64,000 nt of DNA from an uncultured Actinomycetota bacterium (GCA_963843775.1 CAWJLT010000012.1:954223-1018222); one strand, 5' to 3'. Shown: positions 7,191 through 27,969, counted from the first letter of the stretch. Numbers and translations: made by a program. The notes: generated by a model not told the origin, from the sequence alone.

Positions 7191-7260
7191 GATGGCGCTT
7201 TCTTGTTGGCCGGGGGAGCATCAGGAGGCCGACGGCCGTCCGGATGACGCAGCCACCACC

Positions 7261-7340: not shown

Positions 7341-7404
7341 CCTCGCCCTCCCCCTTGCCCTCCACCTTGCTCGGGGACCCTGTCGGGGCCCGTCCGTGGG
7401 GGCG

Positions 7405-7605: not shown

Positions 7606-7625
7606 GAGCTACGTGGCGTCGCCCA

Positions 7626-9011: not shown

Positions 9012-9138
9012 GGGCCCAGCCTCGTCCAGCGACGGAGCGTGCAGCAGAGGCGAAGGTCCTGTCCGCGGTCGGTCTTCGCCCCCAGGCAGGGGACCTCCGA
9101 CCCTGCCGTGGCACGCCACGGAGGAGCAGGGTCGACGC

Positions 9139-10506
9139 ATGGCCACCAGACCGATCGATCCTGTGGACACCATCTGGCTCAACATGGACCGCGCCAACAA
9201 CCTGATGGTCATCGAGAGCCTGATGATGCTGGAGAGTCCGCCGGACTGGGAGCGGTTCCTCGACGTCCTGCAGCGACGGGTGGTCGACGTCTACCCCGTG
9301 TTCAGCCAGCGCGCCGTCCCGGCCGTGGCCGGTCTGCCCCTCCTGCCGTCGCGCTGGGAGGACGACGCCGACTTCTCGCTGACACGTCATGTCCACCGGG
9401 TCACGCTGCCCGGCCCCGGGGGTGATGGGGAGCTTCAGGCCTACGTGACCTCGCACCTGAGTACGCCGCTGCCGCGTGACCGTCCGCTCTGGGAGATGCA
9501 CCTCGTCGACGGCTACCGCGACGGCGCGGCGATCTACAGCCGCCTGCACCACGCCATGGCTGACGGGATCGCGCTGACACAGGTGTTGCTGTCGCTCACC
9601 GACGAGACGCCGGAGGTCGCCGCCGACGCGCCCCCGACGATGCGGCCGTCCACGCGCAGTCGGCTCGGCTCGGCGGTGCACCTGGCCGGCGCCACTGCGT
9701 CGTTTCTGCTCGACGCCCCCCGTCTGCTCACCACCGCACATCTGGGCGAGGCCGTGAAGCTCGCCGCGAAGACCACCGGTGTCACCACGAAGCTGCTGCT
9801 CGCCCGGAACCCGGACTCAGTCGTGTCCGGCGTGGCCACGGTGTCCAAGCGTGCCATCTGGGCTCCGCCGATCCCGCTGGACGAGGTCGTGTCGGTCGCC
9901 CACAGGACGGGCACCACGGTCAACGACGTGCTGATGTCGGCCCTCGCGGGGGCGTTGTCGACGTACCTCACGACGCATCACGGTGTGGCCGTCGACATCC
10001 CGACGATGGTGCCGATCAACCTGCGTCCGCACGACGAGCCGTTGCCCCGTGAGCTGGGCAACCGGTTCGCCCTGGTGTTGTACACGCTGCCCAGCGGTCT
10101 GGGGACGTCGTTCGCCCGACTGGCCGAGACCAAACGCCGGATGGACGCGATCAAGAGCTCGCCGGAGGCGTTGCTGACCATGGGGATGATCCAGGGGATC
10201 GGGCACACCGGCCCCGAGCTCGAACGGCTCGTGGTCGACTTCTTCGCGAACAAGGCGACAGGGGTGACCACCAACGTGCCAGGGCCGTCGACGTCGCGAT
10301 ACGTGGCGGGAACGCGTATCGCGGCCATGCTCGGGTGGGCTCCGGAGTCGGGCAACCAGGCGTTGGGGACTGCCATCTTCAGCTACGACGGGTCCGTGTT
10401 CGTCGGGTTCAAGGTGGACACCGGCATCATCACCCACCCCGAGGACCTTCTGGCGGCGTTCAACGACGAGATCGAAGCGTTGCGCCGAATGGCCCCGGCC
10501 GGCTAG
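9139..10506 (+). CDS. WS/DGAT family O-acyltransferase (second, diverged copy)
   Basis: It has the HHAMADGIAL motif. The start MATRPIDPVDTIWLNMD at the 9139 ATG is in frame with the track ORF 8983..10506. Confidence 0.85.
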   Translation: MATRPIDPVDTIWLNMDRANNLMVIESLMMLESPPDWERFLDVLQRRVVDVYPVFSQRAVPAVAGLPLLPSRWEDDADFSLTRHVHRVTLPGPGGDGELQAYVTSHLSTPLPRDRPLWEMHLVDGYRDGAAIYSRLHHAMADGIALTQVLLSLTDETPEVAADAPPTMRPSTRSRLGSAVHLAGATASFLLDAPRLLTTAHLGEAVKLAAKTTGVTTKLLLARNPDSVVSGVATVSKRAIWAPPIPLDEVVSVAHRTGTTVNDVLMSALAGALSTYLTTHHGVAVDIPTMVPINLRPHDEPLPRELGNRFALVLYTLPSGLGTSFARLAETKRRMDAIKSSPEALLTMGMIQGIGHTGPELERLVVDFFANKATGVTTNVPGPSTSRYVAGTRIAAMLGWAPESGNQALGTAIFSYDGSVFVGFKVDTGIITHPEDLLAAFNDEIEALRRMAPAG

Positions 10507-12540: not shown

Positions 12541-13713
12541 GTGGCGGTCTCGACAGGGTTGTTGCTCGAGCTCGGACTGCTGCTGCTGGTGCTGACGGTT
12601 CTCGGCTCCGGTGCCCGCAAGGTGGGGTTGTCACCGATCCCGCTCTACCTGCTGGCGGGGCTGTTCCTCGGCCAGGGCGGGATCGCGCCCGTGGCGGCCA
12701 CCCATGACTTCGTCGAGGCGGGAGCCTCGATCGGTCTGGTGCTGCTGCTGCTCGTCCTGGGACTCGAGTTCACCGTCGACGAGTTCACCACCAGCCTGCG
12801 TCGTCACCTGGGGTCAGCGGTCGTCGACCTCGTCCTCAACGCGACACCCGGGGCCCTGGCCGGTTGGTTGATCGGTCTCGACGCCGTGGGGGTCGTGGCC
12901 CTCGCGGGCGCGACGTACATCTCGTCCTCAGGCATCATCGCGCGAGTGCTCGGAGACCTGCAGCGGTTGGGCAACCGGGAGACCCCGGCCGTCCTCTCCG
13001 TCCTCGTCCTCGAGGACTTCGCCATGGCCGCCTACCTCCCCGTCCTGGCCGTGCTCGCCTCGGGAGGCACCTGGTGGCAGGCAGTCATCGGCGTCGCGGT
13101 CGCTCTGGGCGCCTTGAGCGGCGCCCTGGTGGCCTCGCAGCGCTACGGTCACCGCGTGGGACAGCTGGTCTCCCACCCCGATGCCGAGCAGCTGCTCCTG
13201 CGGGTCCTGGGCCTCACGCTCGTCGTCGCCGCCTTCGCCGAGTTCGTCCACGCCTCCGCCGCGGTCGGAGCCTTCCTCGTCGGCCTCACCCTCACCGGCG
13301 ACGTCGCGGTCAGGGCACGAGCCGTCCTCTCACCCCTGCGGGACCTGTTCGCAGCGGTGTTCTTCCTCGCCATCGGTCTCTCCGTCGACCCCGCCGACCT
13401 GCTGCCTGCCCTCCCTGTGGCCATCCTGCTGGCGGTCGTGACGGCCCTGACCAAGATCGCCACCGGCTGGTACGCAGCCGGCCGGGAAGGGGCTGGGTCC
13501 CCGGGGCGGTGGCGTGCCGGGACCGTGTTGACGGCCCGCGGGGAGTTCTCCCTGGTCATCATCGGCCTGGTCGGGACCCAGCACGCATCGCTGGGCGACC
13601 TGGTGACCGCCTACGTCCTCGTGCTCGCCATCGTGGGTCCACTCCTCGCCCGAGCGCCCGCTCCCAGCCTGCTCGTAGGTCCCAGGACGAAACCCGTGGA
13701 CCCGGGGCCTTGA
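12541..13713 (+). CDS. CPA2-family cation:proton antiporter (KhtU/YhaU-like)
   Basis: 390 aa and polytopic, with a Na+/H+ exchanger-type helix pattern. It starts 2 nt after the KhtT-like stop. Confidence 0.85.
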   Translation: MAVSTGLLLELGLLLLVLTVLGSGARKVGLSPIPLYLLAGLFLGQGGIAPVAATHDFVEAGASIGLVLLLLVLGLEFTVDEFTTSLRRHLGSAVVDLVLNATPGALAGWLIGLDAVGVVALAGATYISSSGIIARVLGDLQRLGNRETPAVLSVLVLEDFAMAAYLPVLAVLASGGTWWQAVIGVAVALGALSGALVASQRYGHRVGQLVSHPDAEQLLLRVLGLTLVVAAFAEFVHASAAVGAFLVGLTLTGDVAVRARAVLSPLRDLFAAVFFLAIGLSVDPADLLPALPVAILLAVVTALTKIATGWYAAGREGAGSPGRWRAGTVLTARGEFSLVIIGLVGTQHASLGDLVTAYVLVLAIVGPLLARAPAPSLLVGPRTKPVDPGP

Positions 13714-15770: not shown

Positions 15771-16142
15771 TCAGGTGTCCGACGGGTTGGCGGCGGAGAG
15801 CTCGGCGAGCCTGATCAGGCAGTGTTGGCGGAGCGGTTCCGGGAAGCCCTGCGCCAGCCGGTAGAACACCATGCGCCCTTCCTTGCGTCGGTTGACGAGC
15901 CCCGCGGTGCGGAGCATCCGGAGTCCGTAGCCGACCGAGTCCTCGGAGGCATCGAGCGCCAGGGCCAGGTCTCCGACGCAGAGCTCCTCGGCGGCATCCA
16001 GCGCGAACAGCAGGCGCATGCGGGTGGGATCGGCGATCAGGGTGAGCACGCTGGTGACTCGTTCAGCCTCCGACGGCCCCGGGATGCGCTCCTTGGCGCG
16101 GTCGACTGCCCCGGGGTCAACGGGGTGTGCGTGGTCGGGCAT
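15771..16142 (-). CDS. ArsR/SmtB-family metalloregulator
   Basis: 123 aa from the ATG at 16142. The sequence LIADPTRMRLLFALDAAEELCVGDLALALDASEDSVGYGLRMLRTAGLVNRRKEGRMVFYRL is a canonical winged HTH. The ELCVGDLA motif has a single Cys in the alpha3 position. Confidence 0.9.
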   Translation of the reverse strand: MPDHAHPVDPGAVDRAKERIPGPSEAERVTSVLTLIADPTRMRLLFALDAAEELCVGDLALALDASEDSVGYGLRMLRTAGLVNRRKEGRMVFYRLAQGFPEPLRQHCLIRLAELSAANPSDT

Positions 16143-16158
16143 GGTCGTCCTCCAGGAA

Positions 16159-16182
16159 ACACCCGCATGACGACACGGGTGT
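16159..16182. promoter_or_regulatory. Candidate ArsR operator: 7-bp perfect inverted repeat ACACCCG-N10-CGGGTGT
   Basis: It lies 17-40 nt upstream of the arsR start, in the divergent arsR / nuoA-like intergenic region. Confidence 0.4.
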
Positions 16183-16213
16183 CGGGTATGTAGCGTAGGT
16201 CCTGACCGGCGCC

Positions 16214-16268
16214 CAGCCAACATCCGCAGCCAACCATCACAGCCAACATCCACAGCCAACGTCCACAG
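16214..16268 (+). repeat. Tandem 13-bp repeat CAGCCAAC(N)TCCA, four full copies plus a partial fifth, running into the nuoA-like RBS
   Basis: The units are cagccaacatccg / cagccaaccatca / cagccaacatcca / cagccaacgtcca / cagcgaaggagg. GAAGGAGG sits 5 nt before the GTG at 16284. Confidence 0.85.
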
Positions 16269-16283
16269 CGAAGGAGGTGGCCG

Positions 16284-16625
16284 GTGACTTCGCTGTTGTT
16301 CCTCATCGTCGCCTCGCTCGGCGCCGTGGTGGCCCTCCGACTGCTGGCCCGTTGGACCACGGTGTCGGCGAGTCCCTTCGAGGTCGAGCCGTGGCTGTCG
16401 GGACATCGTCCGACCGAGCACGCACTCTCGAGGTACCACGCCCGCTGGTACACGGCCAGCGTGGTGTTCCTCGCCTTCGACGTCGAGATGCTCTTCATGT
16501 ATCCCTGGGCGGTCGTGGTGGGACACCTCGGGCCGGGGGCCGTGGTGGAGATGTTCGGGTTCCTGCTGGTGCTGTTGCTGGCCGTCGGTTGGGCGCGCCG
16601 CGAAGGAGCGTTCCGGTGGGCCTGA
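16284..16625 (+). CDS. nuoA: NuoA-like (ND3-type) membrane subunit
   Basis: 113 aa. The segment YHARWYTASVVFLAFDVEMLFMYPWAVV matches the conserved NuoA core (FDvE..flyPWA). Confidence 0.85.
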   Translation: MTSLLFLIVASLGAVVALRLLARWTTVSASPFEVEPWLSGHRPTEHALSRYHARWYTASVVFLAFDVEMLFMYPWAVVVGHLGPGAVVEMFGFLLVLLLAVGWARREGAFRWA

Positions 16626-17668
16626 TCGATCTGCTGACCAGGGCGGCGAGCTCCCGCGCTCACGTCCTCGTCGCAGAGGCGCCGGGTGCGTTCCGGGAGC
16701 GGGTGGCCGTGGAGCGTGCCCTCGACCAGATGGGTTGGTGCGTCGCCGAGTCGGTGGCGGACGCGGACGTGCTCGTGGTCGTGGGTGAGCCCGGTGAGAC
16801 TCTCGCGGCCGTGGCCGAGCACGTGTGGGCGCAGATGTCGGAGCCACGTGCGCGGCTCCACGTGCGCGCCGAGATCGAGGTGGAGGTGCTTCTCCACCAG
16901 GCTCGCGAGCAGCTCCGTGAGGGTGTGCGGCGCCTCACCGGGCCGGAGGTACGACGCGGCTTCACCCCCTCCGCCGAGGCCATGACGCACGACGAGGGCG
17001 ACCACGACGGAGCCGGCGGGCACGACCACTCCGCGATGATGCCCGACGGGATCCCACTGGCCGAGGGGGCCGAGGACCGCGACGGACTGGAGATGGACCA
17101 GCTCCATCTGCCGCTGGGGCCGGTGCTCGCACACTGGCCCGCCGGGCTCGTCCTCCAGGTCACCCTGAACGGGGACGTCGTCGTCGAGGCCGAGGTCCAA
17201 CAGCTCGCGACCACAGGAGCCGCCTCGAGTCCCGACGACGCGAACGTGCGAGCAGCGCGCCTGCTGGACGCGGCCGGCTCGGTGCTGGTCCTTGCCGGGC
17301 TGCCCGCCGATTCGGCGCGAGCGCGACGCCTGCGGGATCGGTGTCTCGACGGTGAGGCGGTGGGCGGCCGCGAGGTGGCCGGGCTCGGCGACCGCGTCGG
17401 TCGGCGGCGGGTGCTGCGGTGGGTTCTGCACGGACTCTCGGCCGCGGGCAGTCACAGCCGGTCCGAGGAGCTGCACGACCGACTCACGGGTCTGTTCGAG
17501 CGCGCGCGGGCCGAGCTCGACGGGGAGGCGCCGCCACACGTCATGCAGGGTGCCGAGGCGCTTCCCACGCTCGTCCGGGGGATGGAGCTGTCCGCGGTCA
17601 GGCTGTGGGTGGCGGCACTGAAGCCGGACCTGGCCGAGCATGAACGGTCGGAGGCCTCGGGTGGTTGA
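16616..17668 (+). CDS. Degenerate fused NuoB-like / NuoD-like protein lacking Fe-S cluster ligands, with a His/Asp/Met-rich linker
   Basis: It is 350 aa from the GTG at 16616, in the same frame as track ORF 16277..17668, whose first part overlaps nuoA.
- aa ~45-85 (ADADVLVVVGEPGETLAAVAEHVWAQMSEPRARLHV) resembles the NuoB segment PRQaDvmiVaGt.t.KMap.l..vydQMpEPrwViSmG.
- aa ~160-195 (LHLPLGPVLAHWPAGLVLQVTLNGDVVVEAEV) resembles the NuoD N-terminus LNfGPQHPaaHGvLRLvleLdGE.V..a.
- The whole protein has only 2 Cys. Confidence 0.6.
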   Translation: MGLIDLLTRAASSRAHVLVAEAPGAFRERVAVERALDQMGWCVAESVADADVLVVVGEPGETLAAVAEHVWAQMSEPRARLHVRAEIEVEVLLHQAREQLREGVRRLTGPEVRRGFTPSAEAMTHDEGDHDGAGGHDHSAMMPDGIPLAEGAEDRDGLEMDQLHLPLGPVLAHWPAGLVLQVTLNGDVVVEAEVQQLATTGAASSPDDANVRAARLLDAAGSVLVLAGLPADSARARRLRDRCLDGEAVGGREVAGLGDRVGRRRVLRWVLHGLSAAGSHSRSEELHDRLTGLFERARAELDGEAPPHVMQGAEALPTLVRGMELSAVRLWVAALKPDLAEHERSEASGG

Positions 17669-18590
17669 CTCGTTGTCCCTCGTCTACGCGGTGCCGGTGA
17701 TGGTGAGCCTCGCGGCCGCCTCGCTGACGGTGGCCGCGGTGTCCGCGTCCCTCGAGGCCCGCGACCGCGGCCTGCCCGTCCGATCGGGACTGACGGTCCC
17801 GTTCCGTGAGGCGGCACGGCTGCTGCGCCAGCGCCCGCGCCGCACGGTCTCGGCCGACCGGCTGCTGTGGCGGTCGGCCTCGTCCGCCGTGGTCCCGCTG
17901 GCGATCCTGATCGTGGCGTTCGTGCCGCTGGGTGCCCATGCCTTGGTGGACCACCCCCTCGGACTCGTCTGGGTCAATGCGCTCGACGTGGTGGCGTGGG
18001 CGGTGATGTGGCTGCTCGGCTGGGGGGCGAACTCCGTGGTGGGGCTGGTGGGCGGCTACCGGTTCCTCGCGCTCGCCCTGGCCTACGAGCTCCCGCTGAT
18101 GTTCGCGCTCACCGCGCCGGCGATCGCGGCGGGCAGCCTCGACCTGGCCGAGATCTCTGCCGCCCAGGGCGGGGTGTGGTTCGTGGTGTGGGCGCCGGTG
18201 GCCTTCGCGGCGTACTGCTGGGGCGTGCTGGGCTTCTCGGTCCGGCCACCGATGGACCCGGGTGCCGGGGCGGACCTCAACGGCGGGATCCTGGCGGAGC
18301 TCGCGGGGGTGGACCGGCTGTTGGTGCTGGCCGGGCGCTACGCCCTGCTGGTCGCCGGATCGGCGGCCTCCGTTCCGCTGTTCCTGGGCGGTGGCGCAGG
18401 GCCGTTGCTCGCCGGCTGGGCGTGGGTGCTGGTCAAGACGATCGTGGTGAGCCTCCTGCTCGTGCTGGCTGGTCGCCGGCTTCCGAGCCTGCGGCCCGAC
18501 AAGCTCCTCGAGCTCGGGTGGGTCGTCGTGCTGCCACTGGTCGTCGCCCAGGACCTGGTCGTCGCTGTCATCGCTGTTGCCCTCGACTGA
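17640..18590 (+). CDS. nuoH: NuoH-like (ND1-type) membrane subunit, divergent
   Basis: 316 aa with GGYRFLALALAYELP and a NuoH-like N-terminal loop. The start could instead be the GTG at 17661. It overlaps the previous gene. Confidence 0.8.
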   Translation: MNGRRPRVVDSLSLVYAVPVMVSLAAASLTVAAVSASLEARDRGLPVRSGLTVPFREAARLLRQRPRRTVSADRLLWRSASSAVVPLAILIVAFVPLGAHALVDHPLGLVWVNALDVVAWAVMWLLGWGANSVVGLVGGYRFLALALAYELPLMFALTAPAIAAGSLDLAEISAAQGGVWFVVWAPVAFAAYCWGVLGFSVRPPMDPGAGADLNGGILAELAGVDRLLVLAGRYALLVAGSAASVPLFLGGGAGPLLAGWAWVLVKTIVVSLLLVLAGRRLPSLRPDKLLELGWVVVLPLVVAQDLVVAVIAVALD

Positions 18591-18618
18591 AGCTGATCTG
18601 CGCACGAAAGGAGATCCG

Positions 18619-19191
18619 ATGGACATGTCCGTGGTCGACGCCGGGTTCTGGGTCTGTGCCCTCGTGTCCGTGGTGGCGGGCGGCCTGGTGTTCTACGTCG
18701 ACTCGATGGCACGCGCGACCTATGCTCTGGCGGCGTCCTTCGTAGCCGTCGGAGCGGCGCTGTTGTTGCTGGGACAGGCGTACATGGGCGTCATCGTGAT
18801 CTTGATGATGGTCATGGAGATGGCGGTGATGGCCGTCTACATGGTCATGTTCATGGGGATGAACCCGGCGCTGATGCCGATGAGCATGGTCCACTCGCAC
18901 CGCTCCTCGATCGCGGCGGCGCTCGGCACCTTCGTGCTCCTCGCCGCCGGTGCGGTGCTCGTTCCGTGGCCGACCCGCCGAGGAGCCCCCGCCGGTGACG
19001 TCACGGCTGCTCTGGGGGAGGCGATCATGGAGTCGCACATGATCGTGATGATCTCGATGGGACCGGTGATGGTCGCCACGATCGTGGCCGGCGTGGTCCT
19101 CTCCTCGCACCGCACCCGCTACGACCGACTCGGTGACGATCTCGACCGAGACCCGGCCGAGGACCCGCAACCCGGGGGAGTGGGCCGATGA
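18619..19191 (+). CDS. nuoJ: NuoJ-like (ND6-type) membrane subunit, unusually Met-rich
   Basis: The ATG at 18619 follows GAAAGGAGA. The position between H and K and the helix pattern fit NuoJ. One 42-residue stretch contains 13 Met. Confidence 0.7.
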   Translation: MDMSVVDAGFWVCALVSVVAGGLVFYVDSMARATYALAASFVAVGAALLLLGQAYMGVIVILMMVMEMAVMAVYMVMFMGMNPALMPMSMVHSHRSSIAAALGTFVLLAAGAVLVPWPTRRGAPAGDVTAALGEAIMESHMIVMISMGPVMVATIVAGVVLSSHRTRYDRLGDDLDRDPAEDPQPGGVGR

Positions 19192-19490
19192 CGCTGGAGA
19201 CGGTGCTGCTCGTGGCGGCTGCACTGATCGCGGTGGGGGTCTACGGCACCCTGTCGCAGCAGGTGGTCGTGATGGTGATGATGGGCCTGGAGCTGATGAT
19301 CAACGGCATCATCCTGGCCGCGGGCGGGCTGTGGTGGTTCCTCGCCCCCGACCCGTCCGGGCAGGTGCTGCTGCTGGTGGTCATCGCGGCGATGACCGTG
19401 GAGATGGCGATGGGGTTCGCCGTCGCCACGCTCGTCCACCGCCAGGCCGGACACGACATGACCGACATGGCAGCGGAGCTGCACGGCTGA
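19188..19490 (+). CDS. nuoK: NuoK-like (ND4L-type) membrane subunit
   Basis: 100 aa. GLELMINGIIL and AAMTVEMAMGFAV match the two conserved NuoK glutamate helices. It has an ATGA overlap with nuoJ. Confidence 0.85.
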   Translation: MTLETVLLVAAALIAVGVYGTLSQQVVVMVMMGLELMINGIILAAGGLWWFLAPDPSGQVLLLVVIAAMTVEMAMGFAVATLVHRQAGHDMTDMAAELHG

Positions 19491-21364
19491 TGCTCGATCT
19501 CACTCTCGTTGCGCTCGTGGTCGTGCCTGCCGTCCTCGGTGCACTGCTGCTGATGGTCGGAGCCTCGGCCGACCGGATCGCCGCTCCGGTCGGAGTCGGG
19601 TCGGCCACCCTCCTGGCGGTCGCCGCTCTCGCGGTCTCCTTCCCCGCGGCGTCGCGGCCCTCGGTGGCCACGCCTTTCATGGCGGGGTCTGAGCTGGGTC
19701 TGCGTGTCGACGGGCTGGCCGCGCTGGTGCTGCCGACTGTCGCCGTCGTGTCGGCACTGGTGCTGCTGGCGGCGACCGGCACTCCGGAGCTCCGCACGCC
19801 GCGGTTCCACGGCCTGATGCTCCTCTTCGTGGCAGCTGCCCTGATGACGGTGCTGGCCACCACCCTGCCCACGCTGTTGCTGTCGTGGGAGGTGATGGGG
19901 GCGACGTCGTACGCGCTGATCGCCTACCACTGGCGTGACCAGGAGGCGGTCAGCTCGGGCACGACGGCGTTCCTGACGACCCGGACCGCTGACGTCGGTC
20001 TCTACGTGGCGGCCGGCGCCGCGTTGGCGGGGGGAGCGGGACTGGGCCTGTCATCTCTTCCCGGGGCCTCCGAGGGGTGGCGCGACGTCGTGGCCGCGGG
20101 GTTGCTGGTGGCGGGGCTCGGGAAGGCGGCCCAGCTGCCGTTCTCGTTCTGGCTGTCGCGGGCCATGCACGGCCCCAGCCCGGTGAGCGCCCTCCTGCAC
20201 TCGGCGGCGATGGTCGCCATGGGCGGCTACCTGCTGCTGCGGGTCTCCCCGACCCTGGCGGCGACGGGGTGGGCCGACACCGCGGCGGCGTGGGCCGGTG
20301 CCACCACCGCCGTCCTGCTCGGTCTGGTCGCGCTGGCCCAGAGCGACCTCAAGCAGCTCCTCGCTGCCTCCACCGCGGCCCAGCTCGGTTTCGTGGTCCT
20401 CGCGGCCGGGGTCGGGGCCACCGCAGGCGGCGCCACCCACCTGGTCGCCCACGCGGCGGTCAAGGCCGGTCTGTTCCTCGCCGCCGGCATCTGGCTGGAG
20501 GCGCTCGGCACCAGACGTCTCGCCTCGCTCACCGGGGCAGCCCGCCTCTGGCCCGTGGTCGGGGCCTGCGCCACTGCGGGCCTGCTCTCCCTGGCAGGAC
20601 TCCCACCGCTGGCCCTGTGGGCGACCAAGGACGCCGTGCTCGCCGCCGCGGCCGAGCAGTCAGCGGCGCTCTACGTGACCGGGCTGCTGGGGGCAGCGCT
20701 GTCGGCCGCGTACGCCACCAAGGCGCTGGTCGTGCTGACGCGGCGCCCTTCCGAGGACGCGGAGTCGGGTTGGGACGAGGAGCGTGACGGCACCCGGACG
20801 GTGCCGAGGACCTCATGGATCCCGGTCCTCCCGCTGGCGCTGGGAGCGGTCGTCCTCGGTCTGCTCGCGCTGCCGCCGCTCTTCGAGCGGGTGCACGAGA
20901 TGGTCGGCGGCACCGCCGCCCCCGAGCCCGGTTTCGCCGGGCTGCTGACCTCGGCCCTGATCGCGACTTCCGTGGTCACCCTGACGGTGCTGTCGATCCG
21001 GACCGCTCACAGCCGGCGGCTCACCTGGCCCCGAGGGCTCACGAGCTGGCTGTTCCTCGAGACCTGGGCGCACCGGATCGTCGTCGGGCCCGTGGAACGG
21101 CTGGCCCAGCGATTGGCCCACGTCGACGACGCCGTGCTGGACCGCGGCGTCGAGGCGACCGCGCGTGGGACGGTGCGGCTGACGCGTATCGCAGCACTCA
21201 TCGACGACCGCGCCATCGACGGTGGTGTCGCTGCGGTCGTGTCCGCGGTTCGAAGGCTCGGAGGCCTGGCCCGTAGACCGCAGACCGGGCAGCTCCATCA
21301 GTACTACCTCCAAGCGTTGGCCGTGCTGGCTCTCGTCCTCGTCGTCCTTGTCCTCGTGAGGTGA
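19490..21364 (+). CDS. nuoL: NuoL-like (ND5-type) antiporter-like subunit with C-terminal lateral helix
   Basis: The start MLDLTLVALVVVPAVLG overlaps the nuoK stop (TGATG). It has a typical WEVMGATSY core. The C-terminus DDRAIDGGVAAVV...RPQTGQLHQYYLQALAVLAL is the long amphipathic helix plus the last TM. Confidence 0.9.
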   Translation: MLDLTLVALVVVPAVLGALLLMVGASADRIAAPVGVGSATLLAVAALAVSFPAASRPSVATPFMAGSELGLRVDGLAALVLPTVAVVSALVLLAATGTPELRTPRFHGLMLLFVAAALMTVLATTLPTLLLSWEVMGATSYALIAYHWRDQEAVSSGTTAFLTTRTADVGLYVAAGAALAGGAGLGLSSLPGASEGWRDVVAAGLLVAGLGKAAQLPFSFWLSRAMHGPSPVSALLHSAAMVAMGGYLLLRVSPTLAATGWADTAAAWAGATTAVLLGLVALAQSDLKQLLAASTAAQLGFVVLAAGVGATAGGATHLVAHAAVKAGLFLAAGIWLEALGTRRLASLTGAARLWPVVGACATAGLLSLAGLPPLALWATKDAVLAAAAEQSAALYVTGLLGAALSAAYATKALVVLTRRPSEDAESGWDEERDGTRTVPRTSWIPVLPLALGAVVLGLLALPPLFERVHEMVGGTAAPEPGFAGLLTSALIATSVVTLTVLSIRTAHSRRLTWPRGLTSWLFLETWAHRIVVGPVERLAQRLAHVDDAVLDRGVEATARGTVRLTRIAALIDDRAIDGGVAAVVSAVRRLGGLARRPQTGQLHQYYLQALAVLALVLVVLVLVR

Positions 21365-22854
21365 ACGTGCTCTCCGTCCTTGTCTTCCTTCCACTCCTGG
21401 CGGCCGCCGGGCTGCTGGTCCCGCGCATCGGCGACCGGTGGGCGCGGGGCGTCTTCGTCGCGATGACGGCGGTCGAGGTCCTCCTCGCGGGCGTGACTTG
21501 GGCGAGGTACGAGACCCCGGCCGAAGGTGCCTTGTCGCTGGAGGAGCGGGCCCGGTGGATACCGGGCGTGGGAGCGAGCTACCACGTCGGCGTCGACGGT
21601 CTCTCCCTACCTCTGGTGATGATGACCACGCTCGTCTTCCTGGCGTGCGCAGTCTTCGCGGTCCGCGAGCAGCGACGTCCCCGGTTGCAGGCGGCGTTGT
21701 TCCTGTTCCTCGAGACGACGTGCCTGGGGCTGTTCGTCTCCGCCGACCTGATCCTGTTCTTCGTCTTCTTCGACCTCTCCATCGTGGCGATGTACTTCTC
21801 CATCAGCGGCTGGGGCCACGGCAACGCCGCCCGGTCGGCGCTGAAGTTCTTCCTCTACACCTTCCTCGGGTCGTTGGCACTGCTGCTGGGCTTCGTGGGC
21901 CTCTACGTCGCCTCCGACCCGCACACCTTCGACATGGTCGAGCTCGCCGGGCACCCGCCTCTGCAGGGGCACGGTCTTGCGGGTGGTCTGGTGCTGGCGG
22001 CGCTGCTGCTGGGCCTGGCCGTGAAGACCCCGACCTTTCCGTTCCACACCTGGCTCCCCCCGGCGCACAGTGACGCCCCGGCCATCGGTTCCGCAGTCCT
22101 GGCGGGCGTGCTGCTGAAGATGGGCACCTACGGCTTCGTCCGGGTCGCGATGCCGATGCTGCCCGACGCCTGGCGAGCCTGGGCGTGGGTCGTGATAGCG
22201 GTCGGGATCGTGTCGGTGCTCTGGGGAGCGCTGGTGGCCTTCGCGCAGACCGACCTGAAACGGATGATCGCCTACACCTCGGTCAACCACATGGGCTACG
22301 TCGCACTCGCCGTCGGTGCCGCCGGGGTGCTGGCGGACGGTGCGGACGAGGCACGCCAGGTAGCGGTCACCGGGGCGGTCACCCAGATGGTCAGTCATGG
22401 GCTGCTCACCGCTGGCCTCTTCCTGCTGGCCGGAAGCATGTTCGAACGGACCGGGAGCTATGACCTCGACGGGTACGGAGGGCTCGCCTCGACGGCCCCG
22501 CGCTACGCCACGTTGTTCACCGTGGCCGCGTTCGGTTCGCTGGGCCTCCCGGCGTTGTCCGGGTTCATCGCCGAGTTCCAGATCTTTGCCGGAAGCATCG
22601 CCACGGCTCCCGTCACGGCCGTGGCTGTGCTCGGGATACTCATCACGGCTGCACTGTTCCTGCGTGCGCTGCAGAAGGTGTTCACCGGTGCGACCGCTGG
22701 CCTCTCGGTGGGTTTCACTGACGTCACTGCCCGAGAGTGGGTGCCGGTCGCGCTGCTGCTCGCGGTGTCGGTGTTCATCGGGGTGCTGCCGCGCACGCTG
22801 CTGGACGTGATCGAGCCGGCCGCCGCGATGCTCACCCACCTCGTGGGGCGGTGA
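21361..22854 (+). CDS. nuoM: NuoM-like (ND4-type) antiporter-like subunit
   Basis: 497 aa with FPFHTWLPPAHSDAPAIGSAVLAGVLLKMGTYGF, typical of NuoM. It overlaps the nuoL stop. Confidence 0.9.
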   Translation: MNVLSVLVFLPLLAAAGLLVPRIGDRWARGVFVAMTAVEVLLAGVTWARYETPAEGALSLEERARWIPGVGASYHVGVDGLSLPLVMMTTLVFLACAVFAVREQRRPRLQAALFLFLETTCLGLFVSADLILFFVFFDLSIVAMYFSISGWGHGNAARSALKFFLYTFLGSLALLLGFVGLYVASDPHTFDMVELAGHPPLQGHGLAGGLVLAALLLGLAVKTPTFPFHTWLPPAHSDAPAIGSAVLAGVLLKMGTYGFVRVAMPMLPDAWRAWAWVVIAVGIVSVLWGALVAFAQTDLKRMIAYTSVNHMGYVALAVGAAGVLADGADEARQVAVTGAVTQMVSHGLLTAGLFLLAGSMFERTGSYDLDGYGGLASTAPRYATLFTVAAFGSLGLPALSGFIAEFQIFAGSIATAPVTAVAVLGILITAALFLRALQKVFTGATAGLSVGFTDVTAREWVPVALLLAVSVFIGVLPRTLLDVIEPAAAMLTHLVGR

Positions 22855-22863
22855 TCGGACGCG

Positions 22864-24258
22864 ATGGGTGCTGACCTCGTCTCGCTCCTGCCGGAGGCTC
22901 TGCTCTTCCTGGGCGGGATGGTCACGCTGGTCGGCGGTTCGTTCACGCCACGGACCCGTCAGTGGCGGCTTCGACCGGTCGCCGGGGCAGCCACCGCGGC
23001 CAGCCTGGTCGCGGCCCTGGTGGCCTGGGCCGGCAACGACCGCACGCTCTTCTCCGGGACGTTCACCGTCGATGCCTCGACCGGGGCGGCCCGGGTCACG
23101 GTGACGTTCTCACTTCTGCTGATCCTGCTCATCGCCTCGGGAGAGGTCCGTGACAACCCCCGGGAGAGCGAGACCTACAGCCTGCTCCTCTTCGGTGCGA
23201 CCGGAGCACTCCTGCTGGCGGGCAGCAGCGATCTGGCCCTCCTGGTCGTGGCGTTCCTGCTCTCGAGCATCCCGCTCTACGGGCTCGTCGGGATCATCGC
23301 CCGGCCGTACTCGCCCGAGGCGGCCCTGAAGACCTACCTGTTCGGTGCGCTGTTCGGCATCGTGCTGATGCTCGGGGCGGTCCTGCTCTACTCGCTCGCC
23401 GGTGGTGCTGGTTACTCGGTGCTCGCAGCCGAGCTCCCCGGGACCCCGACCGCGGCCGTGGGCGCCGGGGGTGTCCTGGTGTTGATGGGCCTGCTCTTCA
23501 AGGCCGGCGGTGTGCCGGGCCACTTCTGGGTGCCGGATGCCACCGAGGGCGCGTCCGTGACCGCTGCGGCCTTCCTCACCACGGTCCCGAAGATCGGGGC
23601 CCTGGTCGCGATCATCAGACTGGTCGACGTGCTGCCAGGGGACCTGCGCTGGGCCACTGTGCTCGGGGTCCTCGCGGTGGTCAGCATGACCATCGGCAAC
23701 CTCGCAGCGCTCGCGCAGAGCGACGTACGCCGACTCCTCGGCTGGTCCACGGTCAGCCAGGTGGGCTATCTGCTCGCCGCGGCGGCTGTGAGCCGGCTCA
23801 GCAACCTGGGCGAACCGGCCCTGCTCTTCTTCCTCGCTGGCTACGCGCTCACGAACCTGGCCGCCTTCGCTGTCGTCGCCGCGGAACCCGAACGCCGCTC
23901 GCTCGAGCAGTGGGCGGGATTTGCCGCGTCGAGGCCAGGCCTGGCAGCGGCCCTCGTCGTGGCCCTGCTGGGGCTCGTCGGGACACCACCGACCGCGGTC
24001 TTCGTCGGCAAGCTCACCACGATGGGCGCGACCTGGGACGCAGGCCTGCCCTGGCTCGCAGTCGCGCTGGCCCTCAACACGGTGGTCAGCCTCTTCTACT
24101 ACCTGCGCTGGATCCGGGCGACTCTTCGTCCGGCCGCTCACTTGGTCGTGGAGACCGGGAGCGGTGAGGACGGCGCCCGTGCGGCCGCCTTCGTGGCAGC
24201 CGCAGCCACCCTCGTGATGGGGCTGGCCGCTGGGCCGATCTGGCTCCTCCTCGACTGA
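22864..24258 (+). CDS. nuoN: NuoN-like (ND2-type) antiporter-like subunit
   Basis: 464 aa with LFKAGGVPGHFWVPDATEGASVTAAAFL, typical of NuoN. Confidence 0.9.
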   Translation: MGADLVSLLPEALLFLGGMVTLVGGSFTPRTRQWRLRPVAGAATAASLVAALVAWAGNDRTLFSGTFTVDASTGAARVTVTFSLLLILLIASGEVRDNPRESETYSLLLFGATGALLLAGSSDLALLVVAFLLSSIPLYGLVGIIARPYSPEAALKTYLFGALFGIVLMLGAVLLYSLAGGAGYSVLAAELPGTPTAAVGAGGVLVLMGLLFKAGGVPGHFWVPDATEGASVTAAAFLTTVPKIGALVAIIRLVDVLPGDLRWATVLGVLAVVSMTIGNLAALAQSDVRRLLGWSTVSQVGYLLAAAAVSRLSNLGEPALLFFLAGYALTNLAAFAVVAAEPERRSLEQWAGFAASRPGLAAALVVALLGLVGTPPTAVFVGKLTTMGATWDAGLPWLAVALALNTVVSLFYYLRWIRATLRPAAHLVVETGSGEDGARAAAFVAAAATLVMGLAAGPIWLLLD

Positions 24259-24292: not shown

Positions 24293-24335
24293 CCGAAGGT
24301 CGGGTCCGGAAGGTCGGGGCCGGAAGGTCAGGGCC
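24293..24335. repeat. Three tandem 13-14-bp units CCG(G)AAGGTC(G/A)GGN in the convergent nuoN / multicopper-oxidase spacer
   Basis: The units are ccgaaggtcgggt / ccggaaggtcgggg / ccggaaggtcaggg. The last copy contains the oxidase stop codon. Confidence 0.6.
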
Positions 24336-25803
24336 GGTAGTTCAGGGCGATCATCATCCCGGCTTCGCCGTGGTAGACGTTGTGGCAGTGCGTCATCCAG
24401 GACCCAGGGTTGTCGGCCTGCAGGTCGACCGACAGCGATGACATCGGCTTGACGAGCACAGTGTCCTTCCGCAGGCCGTTGGGCAGGGCGAAGGTGTGAC
24501 CGTGAACGTGCATGGGGTGGGTCATCTGCGTCATGTTCATCAGCTGCAGACGGACCCGGTCACCCTCGTCGATCATGATCGGGTCGTTCTTCCCGTAGCG
24601 ATCCCCGTTGATGGCCCAGCGGTAGGGCGTCATCTGTCCGCTCAGGTGCACCATCTCGACAGCATCGGGATCCCGGGAGGGCAGCCGGGAGGCCTCGGCC
24701 GGCTCGAGGTCCGCGACCTCGAGGATCGCGCCGTCGAGCTCCGCCGGGTGGACGGCCGGGCCCGGTGCGCTGCCGGCGCCGGTGCGGATGAGGGCCATCG
24801 CCTGACCCTGTTTCCCGTAGGGCCTGGCGACGAGGGGGAACACGCCGTCCTCGAGGGTCACGATGGCGTCATAGCGTTCGCCCATGCCGATGTAGAAGGC
24901 GTCGGTCTCACGAGGCTGGACGGCGAAGCCGTCGGTGTGGGTGATGGTGAGCCGGTGTCCCCCGAGGGCGACGGTGAAGAGGGTGTCGGAGCCGGCGTTG
25001 ATGAGGCGTAGCCGGACGCGCTGGCCGGGCTTGCCGCGGAAGACGTCAGGAGCAGTCGGCGACGCGACCGTTGAGCAGGTAGTGGGGGTAGACGACGTCG
25101 CCCGCGTCCCCGAACGGTGATGTGCCGCCGCCCATGCCCATGTCCATGCCGCCGTCCATACCCGTCGCATGCCGCCTGAGCCCGTGCCCTGGGCGGCGGT
25201 GAGGTCGGCCAGCACGTCGTCGGGGGTGCGTCCGGTGCCGTCGACCCAGTCGTCGAGAACCACGACCCACTCCAGGTCGTAGTCGCCGGGCTCGTGTGGG
25301 TCGTCGATGATCAGTGGGGCGTAGAGGCCTCGGTCGAGCTGTAGACCGACGTGCGGGTGGTAGAAGTACGTGCCCGGTTCGGAGGCGGTGAACTCGTAGC
25401 GGAACGAGTCGCCGCTCCCGATCGGGTTCTGGGTCAGGCCGGGGACGCCGTCAGCCTCGTTGCGCAGCGCGATGCCGTGCCAGTGCACGGTGGTGTCCGC
25501 AGGAAGCTGGTTGTCCACCCGGATGCTGAGCATGTCGCCGGCGGTGGCGCGGATCAGCGGCCCAGGTGCACGGTCGCCGAAGGCCCAGGTGTCGACCCTG
25601 GTGCCACCCAGGTCCAGGGTCGTTGGCTTGGCGGTCAGGGTGTGCTCGACCACCCGCTGCCCCGCAGTCGGGGACAGTCGGGTGGGGGACCCGAAGGCCG
25701 GTGCTGCCCGGGTGCCGGAAGGCGTCGAGCAGGCCCCCAGCGCGCCGGCGGCCGTGACGGCCAGTCCGCCGAGCAGCAGGCTGCGGCGCGAGAAGTCAGG
25801 CAT
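24328..25803 (-). CDS. Tat-exported multicopper oxidase (CopA/CueO-like) with an internal segment apparently out of frame
   Basis: It has a twin-arginine lipoprotein-like signal (MPDFSRRSLLLGGLAVTAAGALGACS) and copper-site motifs (HWHG, HPHV, HPMHVHGH, HCHNVYHGEAGMM). Bases ~25049-25165 read WTAAWTWAWAAAHHRSGTRATSS in the gene frame. An alternate frame there encodes MDGGMDMGMGGGTSPFGDAGDVVYPHYLLNGRVA. Confidence 0.8.
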   Translation of the reverse strand: MPDFSRRSLLLGGLAVTAAGALGACSTPSGTRAAPAFGSPTRLSPTAGQRVVEHTLTAKPTTLDLGGTRVDTWAFGDRAPGPLIRATAGDMLSIRVDNQLPADTTVHWHGIALRNEADGVPGLTQNPIGSGDSFRYEFTASEPGTYFYHPHVGLQLDRGLYAPLIIDDPHEPGDYDLEWVVVLDDWVDGTGRTPDDVLADLTAAQGTGSGGMRRVWTAAWTWAWAAAHHRSGTRATSSTPTTCSTVASPTAPDVFRGKPGQRVRLRLINAGSDTLFTVALGGHRLTITHTDGFAVQPRETDAFYIGMGERYDAIVTLEDGVFPLVARPYGKQGQAMALIRTGAGSAPGPAVHPAELDGAILEVADLEPAEASRLPSRDPDAVEMVHLSGQMTPYRWAINGDRYGKNDPIMIDEGDRVRLQLMNMTQMTHPMHVHGHTFALPNGLRKDTVLVKPMSSLSVDLQADNPGSWMTHCHNVYHGEAGMMIALNYRP

Positions 25804-25939: not shown

Positions 25940-27049
25940 TCAGGCCGCACGCAGCCGGACGGTGAGCTCAGCACCGAGGCCAGGCCCGCCGCTGGAGGCG
26001 GTGATCTCTCCGCCGTGGGCCCTGACGAGTGCCTTGGCGATGCTGAGCCCGATCCCGGAGCCGCCGTGCGCGTGAGTACGTGCGGCGTCGGCGCGATAGA
26101 AGCGGTCGAAGACATGGTCCACGTGCTCGGGTGCGATGCCGTCGCCGGTGTCAGTCACGGCGTACTCGACCCAAGGCCCGCGAAGTGAGCAGGCGATCCG
26201 GACGGTGCCGCCCGCCGGCGTATGACGAAGGGCGTTGTCGAGCAGATTGGTGAGTACCTGGCCGATGCGGTCGGCGTCGACCACTATCCGGGCGTCGGTC
26301 TGCAGCATCAGTCTCGAAGGTGATGCCCGCAGCGGCGAAGCGGCCATCCGCCGCGCGGGCGGCGGCGCTCACGAGGTCTGATCGCAGCTGATCGTTCTCT
26401 CGTTCGATCTCCAAGGTGCCCTCCTCCGCACGGGAGACCGCGGAGATGTCCTCGGCGAGCCGCCTCAGCCGCTGCGTGCTCAACCGGATCACGCCCAGAG
26501 TGTCGTCGTCGAGAGTGCGTACACCATCCTCGATCGCCTCGAGGTGCGCGTCGACAGTGGCCAGCGGGGTCCGCATCTCGTGGGCCAGGTCGGCCAACAT
26601 CCGACGCCGGGTGGACTCGGTGGCCTCCAGACGCTCCGCAAGGGTGTTGCTCGTCGCAGCCAGGACCGCGAACTCCCGGCCGAGTCCAGGGTCGTTGACG
26701 TGGGCGTCGTACTGTCCCGCGGCCACGTGCTCGGCCGCCGTGGCCACCTGCGCGACGGAACGCTGCACCCGGCGCGAGAAGTACCACGTCACGACCAGAG
26801 CGGTGATGGTCGCAGCGAGCAGGGCGATCGAGATCGAGATGGCGAGCGAGGAGTTGAAGGCCCGCTCGACGTGACCTGCCTCGGTGGAGGTGTGCGAGAC
26901 ACCCGCGCGCTGGAGGTGGTCACGGAAGATCGCGGGGCCGACGATCGCGGCCACGACCCAGGTCGTCGCGGCCCGGCGAGCAGGACCAAGGCCTGGGCGC
27001 CGAGGAGCCGCGCCCCGAAACCGGCCCGACCGCGTTCGTGACCGTTCAT
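25940..27049 (-). pseudogene. Sensor histidine kinase (CopS/CusS-like) split over three reading frames
   Basis: - Frame 1 starts at the 27049 ATG, with an ATGA overlap on the regulator stop (MNGHERGRAGFGARLLGAQALVLLAG).
- Frame 2 is track ORF 26151..27059, with HAMP and the H-box LADLAHEMRTPLA.
- Frame 3 is track ORF 25940..26347, with the N, G1 and G2 boxes (LLDNALRHTP, DTGDGI, GGSGIGLSIA).
- The shifts lie near 26968-26980 and 26305-26325. Confidence 0.75.
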
Positions 27050-27738
27050 TCGCCCGCACCCATCCGGTAGCCGACCCCGCGGACGGTGCGCACGTAGCGG
27101 CTGTCGGCGGCGTCGTCGTGCAGCTTGCGACGTAGATGCCCGATGTGGACGTCGACGAGGTGCTCGTCGCCCACCCAGGCTGGTCCCCACACCTGGTCGA
27201 TGAGCTGACGTCGGGTGAAGACGATCTTCGGGCGCTCCGACAGTGCGGCCAACAGGTCGAACTCGGTACGGGTCAGCGCCACCGGCTCGTCATCGAGCCA
27301 GACGTCATGACCGGCACGGTCGATGCTGAGCGCGCCGAAGGAGTCAGGCCGCGCACTCGCGGCCCCCTCCTGGGCGAGCGGGCGTGGACGGCGCAACATC
27401 GCCTGCACGCGGGCCATCAGCTCGCGGGGGCTGAACGGCTTGGTGAGGTAGTCGTCGGCGCCCACGGAGAGGCCGATGAGGGTGTCCACCTCAACGCTAC
27501 GGGCGGTCAGCATGACCAGGTAGGCATCGGAGAAGGTGCGCAGCTGCCGGCACACCTCGATGCCATCCAGACCAGGTAGACCGAGGTCCAGGACGACGAC
27601 ATCAGGATCGACTTCCCGCGCGAGATCAACCGCCCGCAGCCCGTCACCCGTCGAGGACGCGTCGAACCCGTCGCGTTCGAAGTAGCTGACGAGCAACCCG
27701 GCCAACGCGGTCTCGTCCTCCACGATCAGGGCGCGCAT
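27046..27738 (-). CDS. OmpR/PhoB-family response regulator (CopR/CusR-like)
   Basis: MRALIVEDETALAGLL...VVLDLGLPGLDG is the receiver domain. The C-terminal winged helix reads LTRTEFDLLAAL...VRGVGYRM. The start is at the internal Met (27738) of the track ORF. Confidence 0.9.
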   Translation of the reverse strand: MRALIVEDETALAGLLVSYFERDGFDASSTGDGLRAVDLAREVDPDVVVLDLGLPGLDGIEVCRQLRTFSDAYLVMLTARSVEVDTLIGLSVGADDYLTKPFSPRELMARVQAMLRRPRPLAQEGAASARPDSFGALSIDRAGHDVWLDDEPVALTRTEFDLLAALSERPKIVFTRRQLIDQVWGPAWVGDEHLVDVHIGHLRRKLHDDAADSRYVRTVRGVGYRMGAGE

Positions 27739-27969
27739 TCCCGACCGTGGTCTCTCAGGAGCGGCCGCCGCTCCGGCAGCTCCGAGCCCGGGCGGGGAAC
27801 CGGAGCGCGCAGAAGACATGGCCTTCATGGTGCCAGCCCGGACCGGTGAGAAGACGCAGACGGTGAATCGGTGAGGACTTCTTCAACGAACCTTCACACA
27901 ACCACGACCAGACGTGCGGGGTGCTCGCGTCATGGTGGAGGGACAAGCCGAGTTGAGGAGTTGTTCACG

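Follow-up and report, generated by a model that had tools for sequence, protein, structure and literature searches.

A widespread complex I-derived operon with a fused NuoB/NuoD-like cap in Actinomycetota and its possible role as a proton-driven soft-metal exporter

An operon of eight genes was analysed in a 64-kb stretch of DNA (64,000 nucleotides (nt), here called the window) from an uncultured Actinomycetota bacterium (GCA_963843775.1, CAWJLT010000012.1:954223-1018222; G+C about 69%); all positions given are those of the window. Between 16284 and 24258 eight reading frames run in one direction, closely packed and with a high G+C content at the third codon position, in the order nuoA, a gene for a fused NuoB/NuoD-like protein, nuoH, J, K, L, M and N. 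The junctions between them are overlaps of 10, 29, 14, 4, 1 and 4 nt and a single gap of 9 nt. An earlier note on this DNA, made by a model from the sequence alone, had described eight tightly packed co-directional genes, seven of them homologues of complex I membrane subunits, with a NuoL that keeps its long C-terminal lateral helix, with no nuoC, E, F, G or I, and with a divergent ArsR gene on one side and a convergent multicopper oxidase and CopRS-like module on the other; all of these observations were borne out by the junctions above and by the profile and tblastn searches described below.

The identity of NuoA, H, J, K, L, M and N was confirmed with Pfam and NCBIfam, all eight genes lying on the + strand. 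The nuoA-like gene (16284-16625; 113 amino acids) matches Oxidored_q4 (E = 8e-21), the nuoH-like gene (17640-18590; 316 amino acids) matches NADHdh (E = 1e-41) and the nuoK-like gene (19188-19490; 100 amino acids) matches Oxidored_q2. The product of the nuoJ-like gene (18577-19191; 204 amino acids) is matched by Oxidored_q3 at E = 9e-7 with a score below the gathering threshold (29.1 bits against a cut-off of 33.2); the Nocardioides aquaticus orthologue does carry PF00499. The nuoL-like gene (19490-21364; 624 amino acids) starts with an ATG that overlaps the nuoK stop codon by 1 nt, and its product is matched by the NCBIfam NuoL model PRK06590 over positions 5-612 of 615, which indicates that the lateral helix and the last transmembrane helix are present. 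The nuoM-like product (21361-22854; 497 amino acids) scores 463.6 bits with TIGR01972, for which the cut-off is 263.8, and the nuoN-like product (22864-24258; 464 amino acids) scores 282 bits with TIGR01770, under the cut-off of 332.6. That a complete membrane arm is encoded, including the NuoL lateral helix, is strongly supported by these matches. The second gene of the operon (16616-17668; 350 amino acids) starts with a GTG preceded by a GAAGGAG ribosome-binding site; its product has no Pfam match, not even to Complex1_49kDa, and was assigned from a NuoB profile and from its predicted fold. A scan for consensus promoters and terminators in the window gave no useful result in such high-GC DNA.

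The tblastn searches with E. coli NuoB, NuoCD, NuoE, NuoF, NuoG and NuoI as queries found nothing significant in the window. The locus thus lacks the NuoE/F/G N-module, NuoI with its two 4Fe-4S clusters, and NuoC, and the overlap between nuoH and nuoJ leaves no space for nuoI between these genes. Neither nuoC nor nuoI is inserted in the operon at the 80 loci that were fetched for the family, and no redox gene was found in the recurrent flank clusters inspected across the same loci. The encoded subunits alone cannot perform NADH:quinone chemistry.

What stands in the place of nuoB-D is the fused gene, whose product is referred to here as the cap, being the predicted cytoplasmic part of the complex. 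It comprises a NuoB-like region (residues 1 to about 110), a linker rich in His, Asp and Met (about 117-140), an invariant motif and then a skeletal NuoD fold. Searched as a single sequence against the Protein Data Bank (PDB) with phmmer, the cap reached NuoB at an E-value of about 1 only; a profile of the family, built from 32 homologues, matched PSST/NuoB chains over residues 35-83 at E = 1e-5, and hhalign placed the family on residues 85-127 of E. coli NuoB at E = 2.7e-5. The same method with E. coli NuoCD gave nothing meaningful (Prob 0.15%). Since neither Pfam nor hhalign detects the second half of the protein, its assignment to NuoD was made from predicted structure only. An AlphaFold2 model of the whole cap (predicted local distance difference test score (pLDDT) 82.5; predicted template-modelling (TM) score 0.79) retrieved with Foldseek a mixture of NuoB-type and NuoD-type chains at low TM scores among the 50 matches listed. 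When the C-terminal 213 residues were modelled alone (pLDDT 81.8), ranks 1-42 were all NuoD, 49-kDa, NdhH, MbsL or HycE chains, the non-NuoD-type matches within the top 50 being two large subunits of [NiFe]-hydrogenases (ranks 43 and 50); the query-normalised TM score reached 0.58.

This NuoD-like domain, of about 210 residues, aligns with long gaps to NuoD-type chains of about 370-590 residues. Because the Foldseek alignments span the whole of the target, the domain looks like a NuoD from which about half of the chain has been deleted. The part of NuoD that follows the N-terminal sheet and bears the quinone-binding Tyr is absent from the cap, and a His is kept at the loop between strands beta1 and beta2 (H173). 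Across 32 family members there is not one conserved Cys column, and therefore cluster N2 cannot be bound. It is strongly supported, by sequence profiles for the NuoB part and by the modelled fold for the NuoD part, that the cap is a fusion of NuoB and NuoD, both in stripped-down form, and equally so that there is no place in it for an iron-sulfur cluster or a quinone. A short fused gene without cluster ligands had been noticed in this position from the sequence alone, and the profile and structural examination for a functional N2 and quinone site found that neither is kept.

The most conserved stretch of the cap reads MxPxGIPLAxGxxDRDGLEMDxLHxPLGPxLxHWPxG, and the invariant core has 45 residues. 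In our reading this motif begins ahead of the position equivalent to the beta1-beta2 loop of NuoD and also covers it; in complex I that loop extends into the quinone chamber. The linker in front of it is variable in sequence and distinctive in composition: 11.9% His (2.8% in the rest of the protein), 25% Asp or Glu and 9% Met. At least four His are present in the linker of 67% of 166 members of the family, often in repeats of the DHGDM type.

The cap belongs to a large family, with at least 577 relatives in a database clustered at 90% identity and 1173 clusters at 50% identity. It was found in at least 406 species genomes, and all of those that are named are Actinomycetota; the hosts include Nocardioidaceae, Mycobacterium, Mycolicibacterium, Janibacter, Cryobacterium, Kribbella and Pseudonocardia. 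The closest relative among the fetched loci lies on a contig of a Marmoricola metagenome-assembled genome (Nocardioidaceae), with 90% identity in the fused protein. Surveyed across actinobacteria, the gene order A-B/D-H-J-K-L-M-N proved identical in 80/80 loci, as far as the shorter contigs extend. The ratio of nonsynonymous to synonymous substitution rates (dN/dS), measured against three relatives, is 0.05-0.42 over the eight genes and 0.26-0.42 for the fused gene, so that all eight are under purifying selection; by this measure the operon is shown to be functional in the evolutionary sense. The description of the fused gene as a relic in the earlier note was therefore wrong, given this selection and the invariant 45-residue core. 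That the operon as a whole is a decaying, non-functional duplicate of nuo is likewise vanishingly improbable. Most of the peripheral arm has indeed gone, conservation is lowest for the B/D gene (37-91% identity) and a neighbouring kinase gene in the window contains frame changes, but all eight frames are intact, motifs specific to the family are invariant, and the shared gene order extends over loci from distant families and accompanies horizontal spread on plasmids. The pseudogene explanation was rejected on dN/dS, synteny and invariant motifs, and can be considered effectively refuted.

Among the plasmids in PLSDB, the cassette was found on 17 from actinobacteria; their hosts include clinical isolates of Mycobacterium avium and M. 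intracellulare and soil strains of Arthrobacter, Rhodococcus and Gordonia. On the Rhodococcus pyridinivorans plasmid NZ_CP088976 (locus L085, 10129-21283) the eight genes stand alone between two transposase genes of the IS3 family, which argues for a self-sufficient unit. A group II intron is also found near this IS3-bracketed cassette, and the arrangement resembles a mobile unit in the style of a composite transposon. A linear plasmid of Streptomyces sp. NBC_00080 (L084, 10660-11321) carries a decayed remnant, in which nuoA and the first 107 or so codons of the fused gene are left.

This mobility bears on another possible explanation, that the operon supplies an alternative membrane arm for redox subunits encoded elsewhere (canonical NuoB/C/D/I/E/F/G or another donor) and so contributes to a respiratory enzyme. 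The cassette moves by itself, on plasmids and between insertion sequence elements, and the flank clusters inspected hold no redox gene; its own NuoB/D-like cap, a conserved protein, would cover the surface of NuoH and NuoA at which docking takes place; and the NuoH of the family carries a 9-residue deletion, beside a conserved ER motif, in the loop after the first transmembrane helix, a loop inferred from complex I structures to contact the peripheral arm. Set against these points are several precedents. Cyanobacterial NDH-1 exchanges alternative antiporter subunits, a similar idea has been raised for NuoL2 and NuoM2 of the Streptomyces nuo2 set (PMC3765725, PMC8388888), and Ehr complexes have been proposed to use separately encoded partners (PMC6349859). 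Taking both sides together, we consider an alternative respiratory arm quite improbable.

The Streptomyces nuo2 genes resemble the present operon in being an additional actinobacterial nuo-like set that lacks the NADH module and NuoC (PMC3765725, PMC8388888). Their published layout is nuoA2, B2, H2, I2 and J2-N2, with nuoD2 located elsewhere (PMC8388888, PMC3765725). The earlier note had given such partial second nuo sets of Streptomyces as A2-B2-D2-H2..N2. By the published description nuo2 keeps a separate nuoB2, nuoI2 and nuoD2, whereas here B and D are fused and truncated and nuoI is absent, and the two arrangements therefore differ.

The membrane subunits were compared with those of E. coli in an alignment of 11 family members, and conservation of Met was followed across 60-73 loci. 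The seven core subunits are present with their conserved charges, the exceptions being NuoN E133L, NuoM E144D and NuoJ Y59M/G61M/A62E (E. coli numbering). NuoL in the window keeps the equivalents of E144, D178, K229, D303, H334, H338, K342, K399 and D400, of which H334 is either His or Gln across the family. NuoM keeps K234, K265, H322, H348 and E407, and the Glu144 of its fifth transmembrane helix is Asp in every member examined. NuoN keeps K158, K247 and K395, with Lys or Glu at K217. Both transmembrane glutamates of NuoK (E36 and E72) are retained, as are the equivalents of D79 and E81 in NuoA, and NuoA has in addition a family-invariant H46, H52, M69, M72 and M90 that are not found in E. 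coli. In NuoH, E157, E228, R148, R293 and D295 are kept, E220 is Asp, and E216 and E218 are lost. Judged from these alignments, the residues for proton transfer in L, M, K, A and H are shown to have been kept.

The most marked changes are in NuoJ and NuoK. In the third transmembrane helix of NuoJ the canonical (I/V)Y-x-G-A has become M-V-M-E, in that Y59, G61 and A62 of E. coli are replaced by Met, Met and Glu. This helix and the loop that follows it read ILMMVMEMAVMAVYMVMFMGMNPALMPMSMVH in the window, and they are alike in all 11 members displayed save for Val/Ile swaps and two variable positions in the loop. Nine of the 21 residues of the helix are Met, and a new Glu (E81) is present; E81 and H106 of NuoJ are invariant in the family and have no E. 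coli counterpart. Over its whole length NuoJ contains 21 Met in 204 residues, or 10%, and NuoK also has 10%, while Met makes up 1.8% of NuoH, L, M and N from this operon (P = 3e-10 for NuoJ and P = 1.7e-5 for NuoK). The Met enrichment reported in the earlier note is thus real, and is concentrated in these two subunits. Over about 70 loci, 15 Met of NuoJ, 6 of NuoK and 3 of NuoA are conserved at 95% or more and are not found in E. coli, and a Met adjoins each of the E-channel carboxylates (MEM in NuoJ, LELM and VEMAM in NuoK, DVEM in NuoA). A phmmer search of the PDB with a 47-residue fragment around the NuoJ helix gave no match. Both NuoJ and NuoK score higher against complex I chains from Thermus and cyanobacteria than against the complex I of Mycobacterium smegmatis (8e9g); a recent duplication of the actinobacterial nuo operon is therefore an improbable origin for the cassette.

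Upstream of nuoA and divergent from it lies a gene for an ArsR/SmtB-family metalloregulator (15771-16142, - strand; 123 amino acids; Pfam HTH_5), which scores 68.7 bits with the NCBIfam model HTH_metalloreg (cut-off 55); among solved structures SmtB is nearest to it (E = 6.6e-16). The Cys and Asp of an ELCVGD motif, the Cys of a QHC motif and an N-terminal H-x-H are conserved in 12 adjacent orthologues; ligands of the alpha3N type are kept and those of the alpha5 type are absent. The intergenic region between arsR and nuoA contains a palindrome read from the sequence, ACACCCG-N10-CGGGTGT (16159-16182), which is a candidate operator for this regulator. Upstream of nuoA and next to a divergent arsR, the pattern A[CT]CCG-N8-12-CGG[GA]T is found at 16/79 loci, where about 0.9 would be expected from a background rate of 0.0115 per 250 nt. 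Furthermore, a perfect palindrome of the CsoR type, TACCC-N5-GGGTA, lies directly 5' of nuoA at 5/79 loci (0.44 expected). An ArsR neighbour is present at only about one third of the loci.

The nuoA leader in the window also contains 4.3 copies of a 13-nt tandem repeat, CAGCCAACATCCA (16214-16269, + strand; found with TRF), placed downstream of the candidate operator and ahead of the ribosome-binding site; in L001, the closest relative, there is a single copy. Unrelated tandem repeats occupy the same position in the leader at other loci, namely CGGCCAGCC x 3 in L003 and L008 and a 12-mer x 4 in L052, with another in L031. Persulfide sensing of the BigR/SqrR type was considered for the regulator; SmtB is the nearest solved relative and the BigR model scores far under its cut-off. 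A metallo-beta-lactamase-rhodanese fusion, resembling a persulfide dioxygenase, is encoded near the operon at five distant loci (L047, L049, L050, L061 and L080). Together with the two invariant Cys this hints that some of the ArsR regulators might sense reactive sulfur species and not a metal.

At the other end of the operon, convergent with nuoN, is a gene for a multicopper oxidase with a twin-arginine translocation (TAT) signal (24328-25803, - strand; Pfam Cu-oxidase_3, Cu-oxidase_2, Cu-oxidase and TAT_signal), which is likely to be a functional partner of the operon. Beyond it a CopRS-like pair, identified with Pfam, occupies 25946-27828 on the same strand, and consists of an OmpR-type regulator (27046-27828) and a histidine kinase (25946-27050). 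Compared with intact orthologues the kinase gene has two frame changes, near 26970 and 26306, with the 222 codons between them in another frame; it could be a pseudogene, or alternatively these could be indel errors of the assembly.

The flanking reading frames of the 80 loci were clustered, representatives of the clusters were searched with Pfam, and the clusters were mapped back with tblastn. Within 10 kb of the operon, ArsR was found at 28/80 loci, a histidine kinase at 20 and a response regulator at 18, DUF305 at 18, a multicopper oxidase at 17, an HMA-type P-type ATPase at 11, CsoR at 9, CDF at 6, a cupredoxin-like lipoprotein at 5 and CcdA at 4. If multicopper oxidase, DUF305, HMA-type P-type ATPase, CsoR and cupredoxin are taken as the hallmarks of copper handling, at least one of them is present within this distance at 31/57 of the loci that are longer than 15 kb. 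For a random 20-kb stretch of actinobacterial DNA the corresponding figure would be roughly a few percent, which is an estimate and not a computed value. Individual loci illustrate the same tendency: on plasmid 1 of Arthrobacter sp. FB24 a sulfocyanin-like protein, DUF305 and a multicopper oxidase are encoded ahead of the operon, all in its direction; on pMAH135 of M. avium the operon comes after MerR, a heavy-metal P-type ATPase and an HMA protein; and in Nocardioides aquaticus (CP075371, L086) it lies beside a YHS/HMBD P-type ATPase, DUF305 and a ZnuABC-type system. It is clear from these counts that the operon is statistically associated with genes and operators of copper and other metal homeostasis.

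Some further features of these neighbourhoods may be recorded. At the locus of N. aquaticus, a cultured strain, the ZnuABC-type ABC transporter genes follow a divergent ArsR gene (6117-9473 in that locus), and a multicopper oxidase gene 3' of nuoN is broken into small fragments (17734-18060). In the window, two divergent wax-ester synthase/DGAT genes (7626-9212, - strand, and 9139-10506, + strand) have 5' ends that overlap by about 74 nt, which is probably an issue of start-codon calling.

The reading that we favour as a whole, tentatively and at close to an even chance, is that the operon encodes a self-contained, redox-independent descendant of complex I that exports a soft metal. Its parts are held with different degrees of confidence. 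That the complex is a redox-independent ion translocator is probable, and a role in metal homeostasis is likely, if held a shade less firmly; that it would be specifically an H+-coupled exporter of Cu(I) or Ag(I) is plausible but tentative. The earlier note had proposed an ion-translocating module derived from complex I that cannot carry out NADH:quinone chemistry, and this is supported by the missing N-module, NuoI, NuoC and N2 cysteines, by the deletion of the NuoD segment that bears the quinone Tyr, by the intact Lys, Glu and His of NuoL, M, K and A, and by purifying selection. Its suggestion that the module might respond to metal has been strengthened by the copper genes at 31 of the 57 long loci, the CsoR-type operators, the metal-resistance regions of plasmids and the Met of NuoJ and NuoK.

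The complex would act in the manner of an Mrp-type cation/proton antiporter, with protons moving inward through L, M and N. Their flow would drive conformational changes in the bundle of small subunits NuoH, A, J and K, the former E-channel, and this bundle, being lined with Met next to conserved carboxylates, would send out of the cell a soft metal cation, for which Cu(I) is the likeliest candidate and Ag(I) another possibility. The linker of the cap, with its many His, Asp and Met, may collect metal from the cytoplasm and pass it to the invariant Met/His/Trp motif in the place of the NuoD beta1-beta2 loop, over the old quinone chamber. Expression would be set by metal sensors, the SmtB-like ArsR here and CsoR in other lineages, and the neighbouring TAT-exported multicopper oxidase could oxidise the exported Cu(I) outside the cell. 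In CusA/CusF, CopA-type P1B ATPases and Ctr1, Met residues, with or without His and Trp, bind Cu(I) or Ag(I), and segments rich in His and Met serve for capture; these systems also co-occur with multicopper oxidases and copper sensors. The parallel is a functional analogy, and no homology is proposed; the architecture and energy coupling suggested for the present system derive from complex I.

Several points weigh against this reading. The transport activity, its substrate, direction and coupling are all inferred. The E-values of the Foldseek matches on which the NuoD assignment depends are weak (0.02-0.6), sequence methods being blind to this part of the cap, and residues 117-153, which hold the invariant motif, are modelled with a pLDDT below 50 in isolation. 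The Met of the third NuoJ helix are not on one helical face (resultant 0.28, P = 0.31) and the helix is Met-rich all round, so that a simple single-face "methionine ladder" is unsupported. In NuoN the Glu133 of the fifth transmembrane helix is Leu in every member examined, and without it this subunit could perhaps no longer conduct protons. To our knowledge the E-channel of canonical complex I does not open outward, and an exit path for the metal must be assumed. The identity of the metal is uncertain because zinc-type systems are also found nearby: CDF at the 6 loci mentioned, ZnuABC in N. aquaticus, and at 4 loci a ZIP-like cluster, identified by reading and without a Pfam match.

These zinc-type neighbours lead to a related explanation, in which the complex would handle another metal, by efflux of Zn(II), Cd(II), Ni(II) or Co(II), or would work in the other direction, as a proton-driven system for uptake or for delivery to extracytoplasmic cuproenzymes. 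Cytoplasmic loops rich in His and Asp are typical of Zn, Ni and Co transporters, the regulator is nearest to the zinc sensor SmtB, and the neighbours on pMAH135 are MerR and a generic heavy-metal ATPase. The coordination chemistry of thioethers is, on the other hand, well established, and transmembrane segments so rich in them favour the soft monovalent Cu(I) and Ag(I) and not Zn(II); moreover, the commonest metal neighbours (multicopper oxidase, DUF305, CsoR and HMA-type ATPase) are copper-specific, the operators are of the CsoR type, and the neighbourhoods are resistance islands rather than uptake loci. Another metal or direction is unlikely.

A second explanation draws on the 26/57 long-flank loci that have no copper gene within 10 kb, a point that also counts against copper export: the complex could be an Mrp-like Na+/H+ or K+/H+ antiporter, or a pure proton conductor, that serves pH or salt homeostasis and is a passenger in stress islands with no direct part in metal transport. 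This we regard as decidedly unlikely, since it leaves unexplained the invariant Met-rich NuoJ and NuoK, the His/Met-rich linker of the cap, the CsoR and ArsR operators directly upstream, the enrichment of copper genes and the metal islands of plasmids. In its favour, L, M and N are antiporter-like and intact, and a gene for a Na+/H+ exchanger of the CPA type lies 2.5 kb upstream of the operon in the window (12541-13713, + strand), with CPA1-type genes near the operon at 4 other loci. Mrp (CPA3) is also the known redox-free relative, a set of NuoL/M/N-like, NuoK-like and NuoJ-like subunits, and it is the proposed working analogy for metal export too, in which proton movement in the large subunits would power the export of a cation by way of the small ones. 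Mrp differs, however, in having no NuoH, NuoA or NuoB/D-like cap and in possessing MrpB, E, F and G, of which the operon has none, its small-subunit genes being limited to those already named; the best Nuo models of NCBIfam give L, M and N higher scores than do the Mrp models, whose cut-offs are far from being reached; and the substrate of Mrp is an alkali cation, whereas the one proposed here is a soft metal.

The metal exporter reading can also be set against the other known relatives of complex I. With complex I itself the operon shares NuoA, H, J, K, L, M and N in canonical order, the lateral helix, the Lys, Glu and His of L, M and K, NuoA D79/E81 and NuoH E157/E228. It differs in that NuoB and NuoD are fused and cut to about 110 and about 210 residues, that NuoC/E/F/G/I, the N2 Cys and the Tyr-bearing quinone segment are missing, that the YxGA of the NuoJ helix has become MVME in a Met-rich helix, and that the fifth transmembrane helices of NuoN and NuoM have Leu and Asp. 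In the solved structures of MBH and MBS, Fe-S subunits resembling NuoB, NuoI and NuoC are kept, and the complexes are constructed around a module of the Mrp type. In Ehr, MBH, MBS and Mbx a NuoD-like subunit without catalytic metal ligands is combined with NuoH-like and antiporter-like subunits (PMC6349859, PMC8165549), which is similar to the NuoD-like fold without Cys ligands described here, for which the best Foldseek match of the isolated domain is MbsL. Ehr complexes have still been interpreted as redox enzymes acting with partner modules, and their definition is loose (PMC6349859); the present operon, with an A/J/K/L/M/N set of the complex I type and no Fe-S site, fits it only loosely.

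In the searchable full-text literature, which misses most subscription journals, no description of the operon or of a link to metal was found. A survey from 2025 recorded partial Nuo sets on plasmids and assigned no function to them (PMC12361115). As far as this literature goes, the operon is a real, widespread and uncharacterised derivative of complex I. In the annotations that were inspected its membrane genes are called subunits of NADH-quinone oxidoreductase, of complex I or of a proton-conducting transporter, and the cap is called hypothetical or "DUF4779". With the family present in at least 406 species genomes, metabolic reconstructions built on such annotation could count a respiratory enzyme that cannot exist.

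It is possible, though somewhat doubtful, that a complex I membrane arm with a cofactor-free cap constitutes a new class of Cu(I)/Ag(I) exporter, driven by the proton-motive force and spread on plasmids as an eight-gene cassette. We know of no proton-driven Cu(I) exporter in monoderm or mycolate Actinomycetota. If metal export is correct, the cassette would be a new and horizontally mobile mechanism of resistance with a bearing on copper and silver tolerance, the first derivative of complex I to transport a metal, and the first copper pump of monoderm or mycolate bacteria to be driven by the proton-motive force. It would also be a natural complex I that is free of the quinone module, and would allow the coupling between the E-channel and the antiporter subunits to be examined in the absence of redox reactions. 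In complex I, the way in which the quinone site acts on antiporter subunits far away from it is a matter of continuing debate. The carboxylates of the E-channel are retained in this family, together with the lateral helix, the loops of NuoA and NuoH and the place of the beta1-beta2 loop of NuoD, but redox chemistry is dispensed with, and the coupling machinery would therefore be testable with a simple ion substrate.

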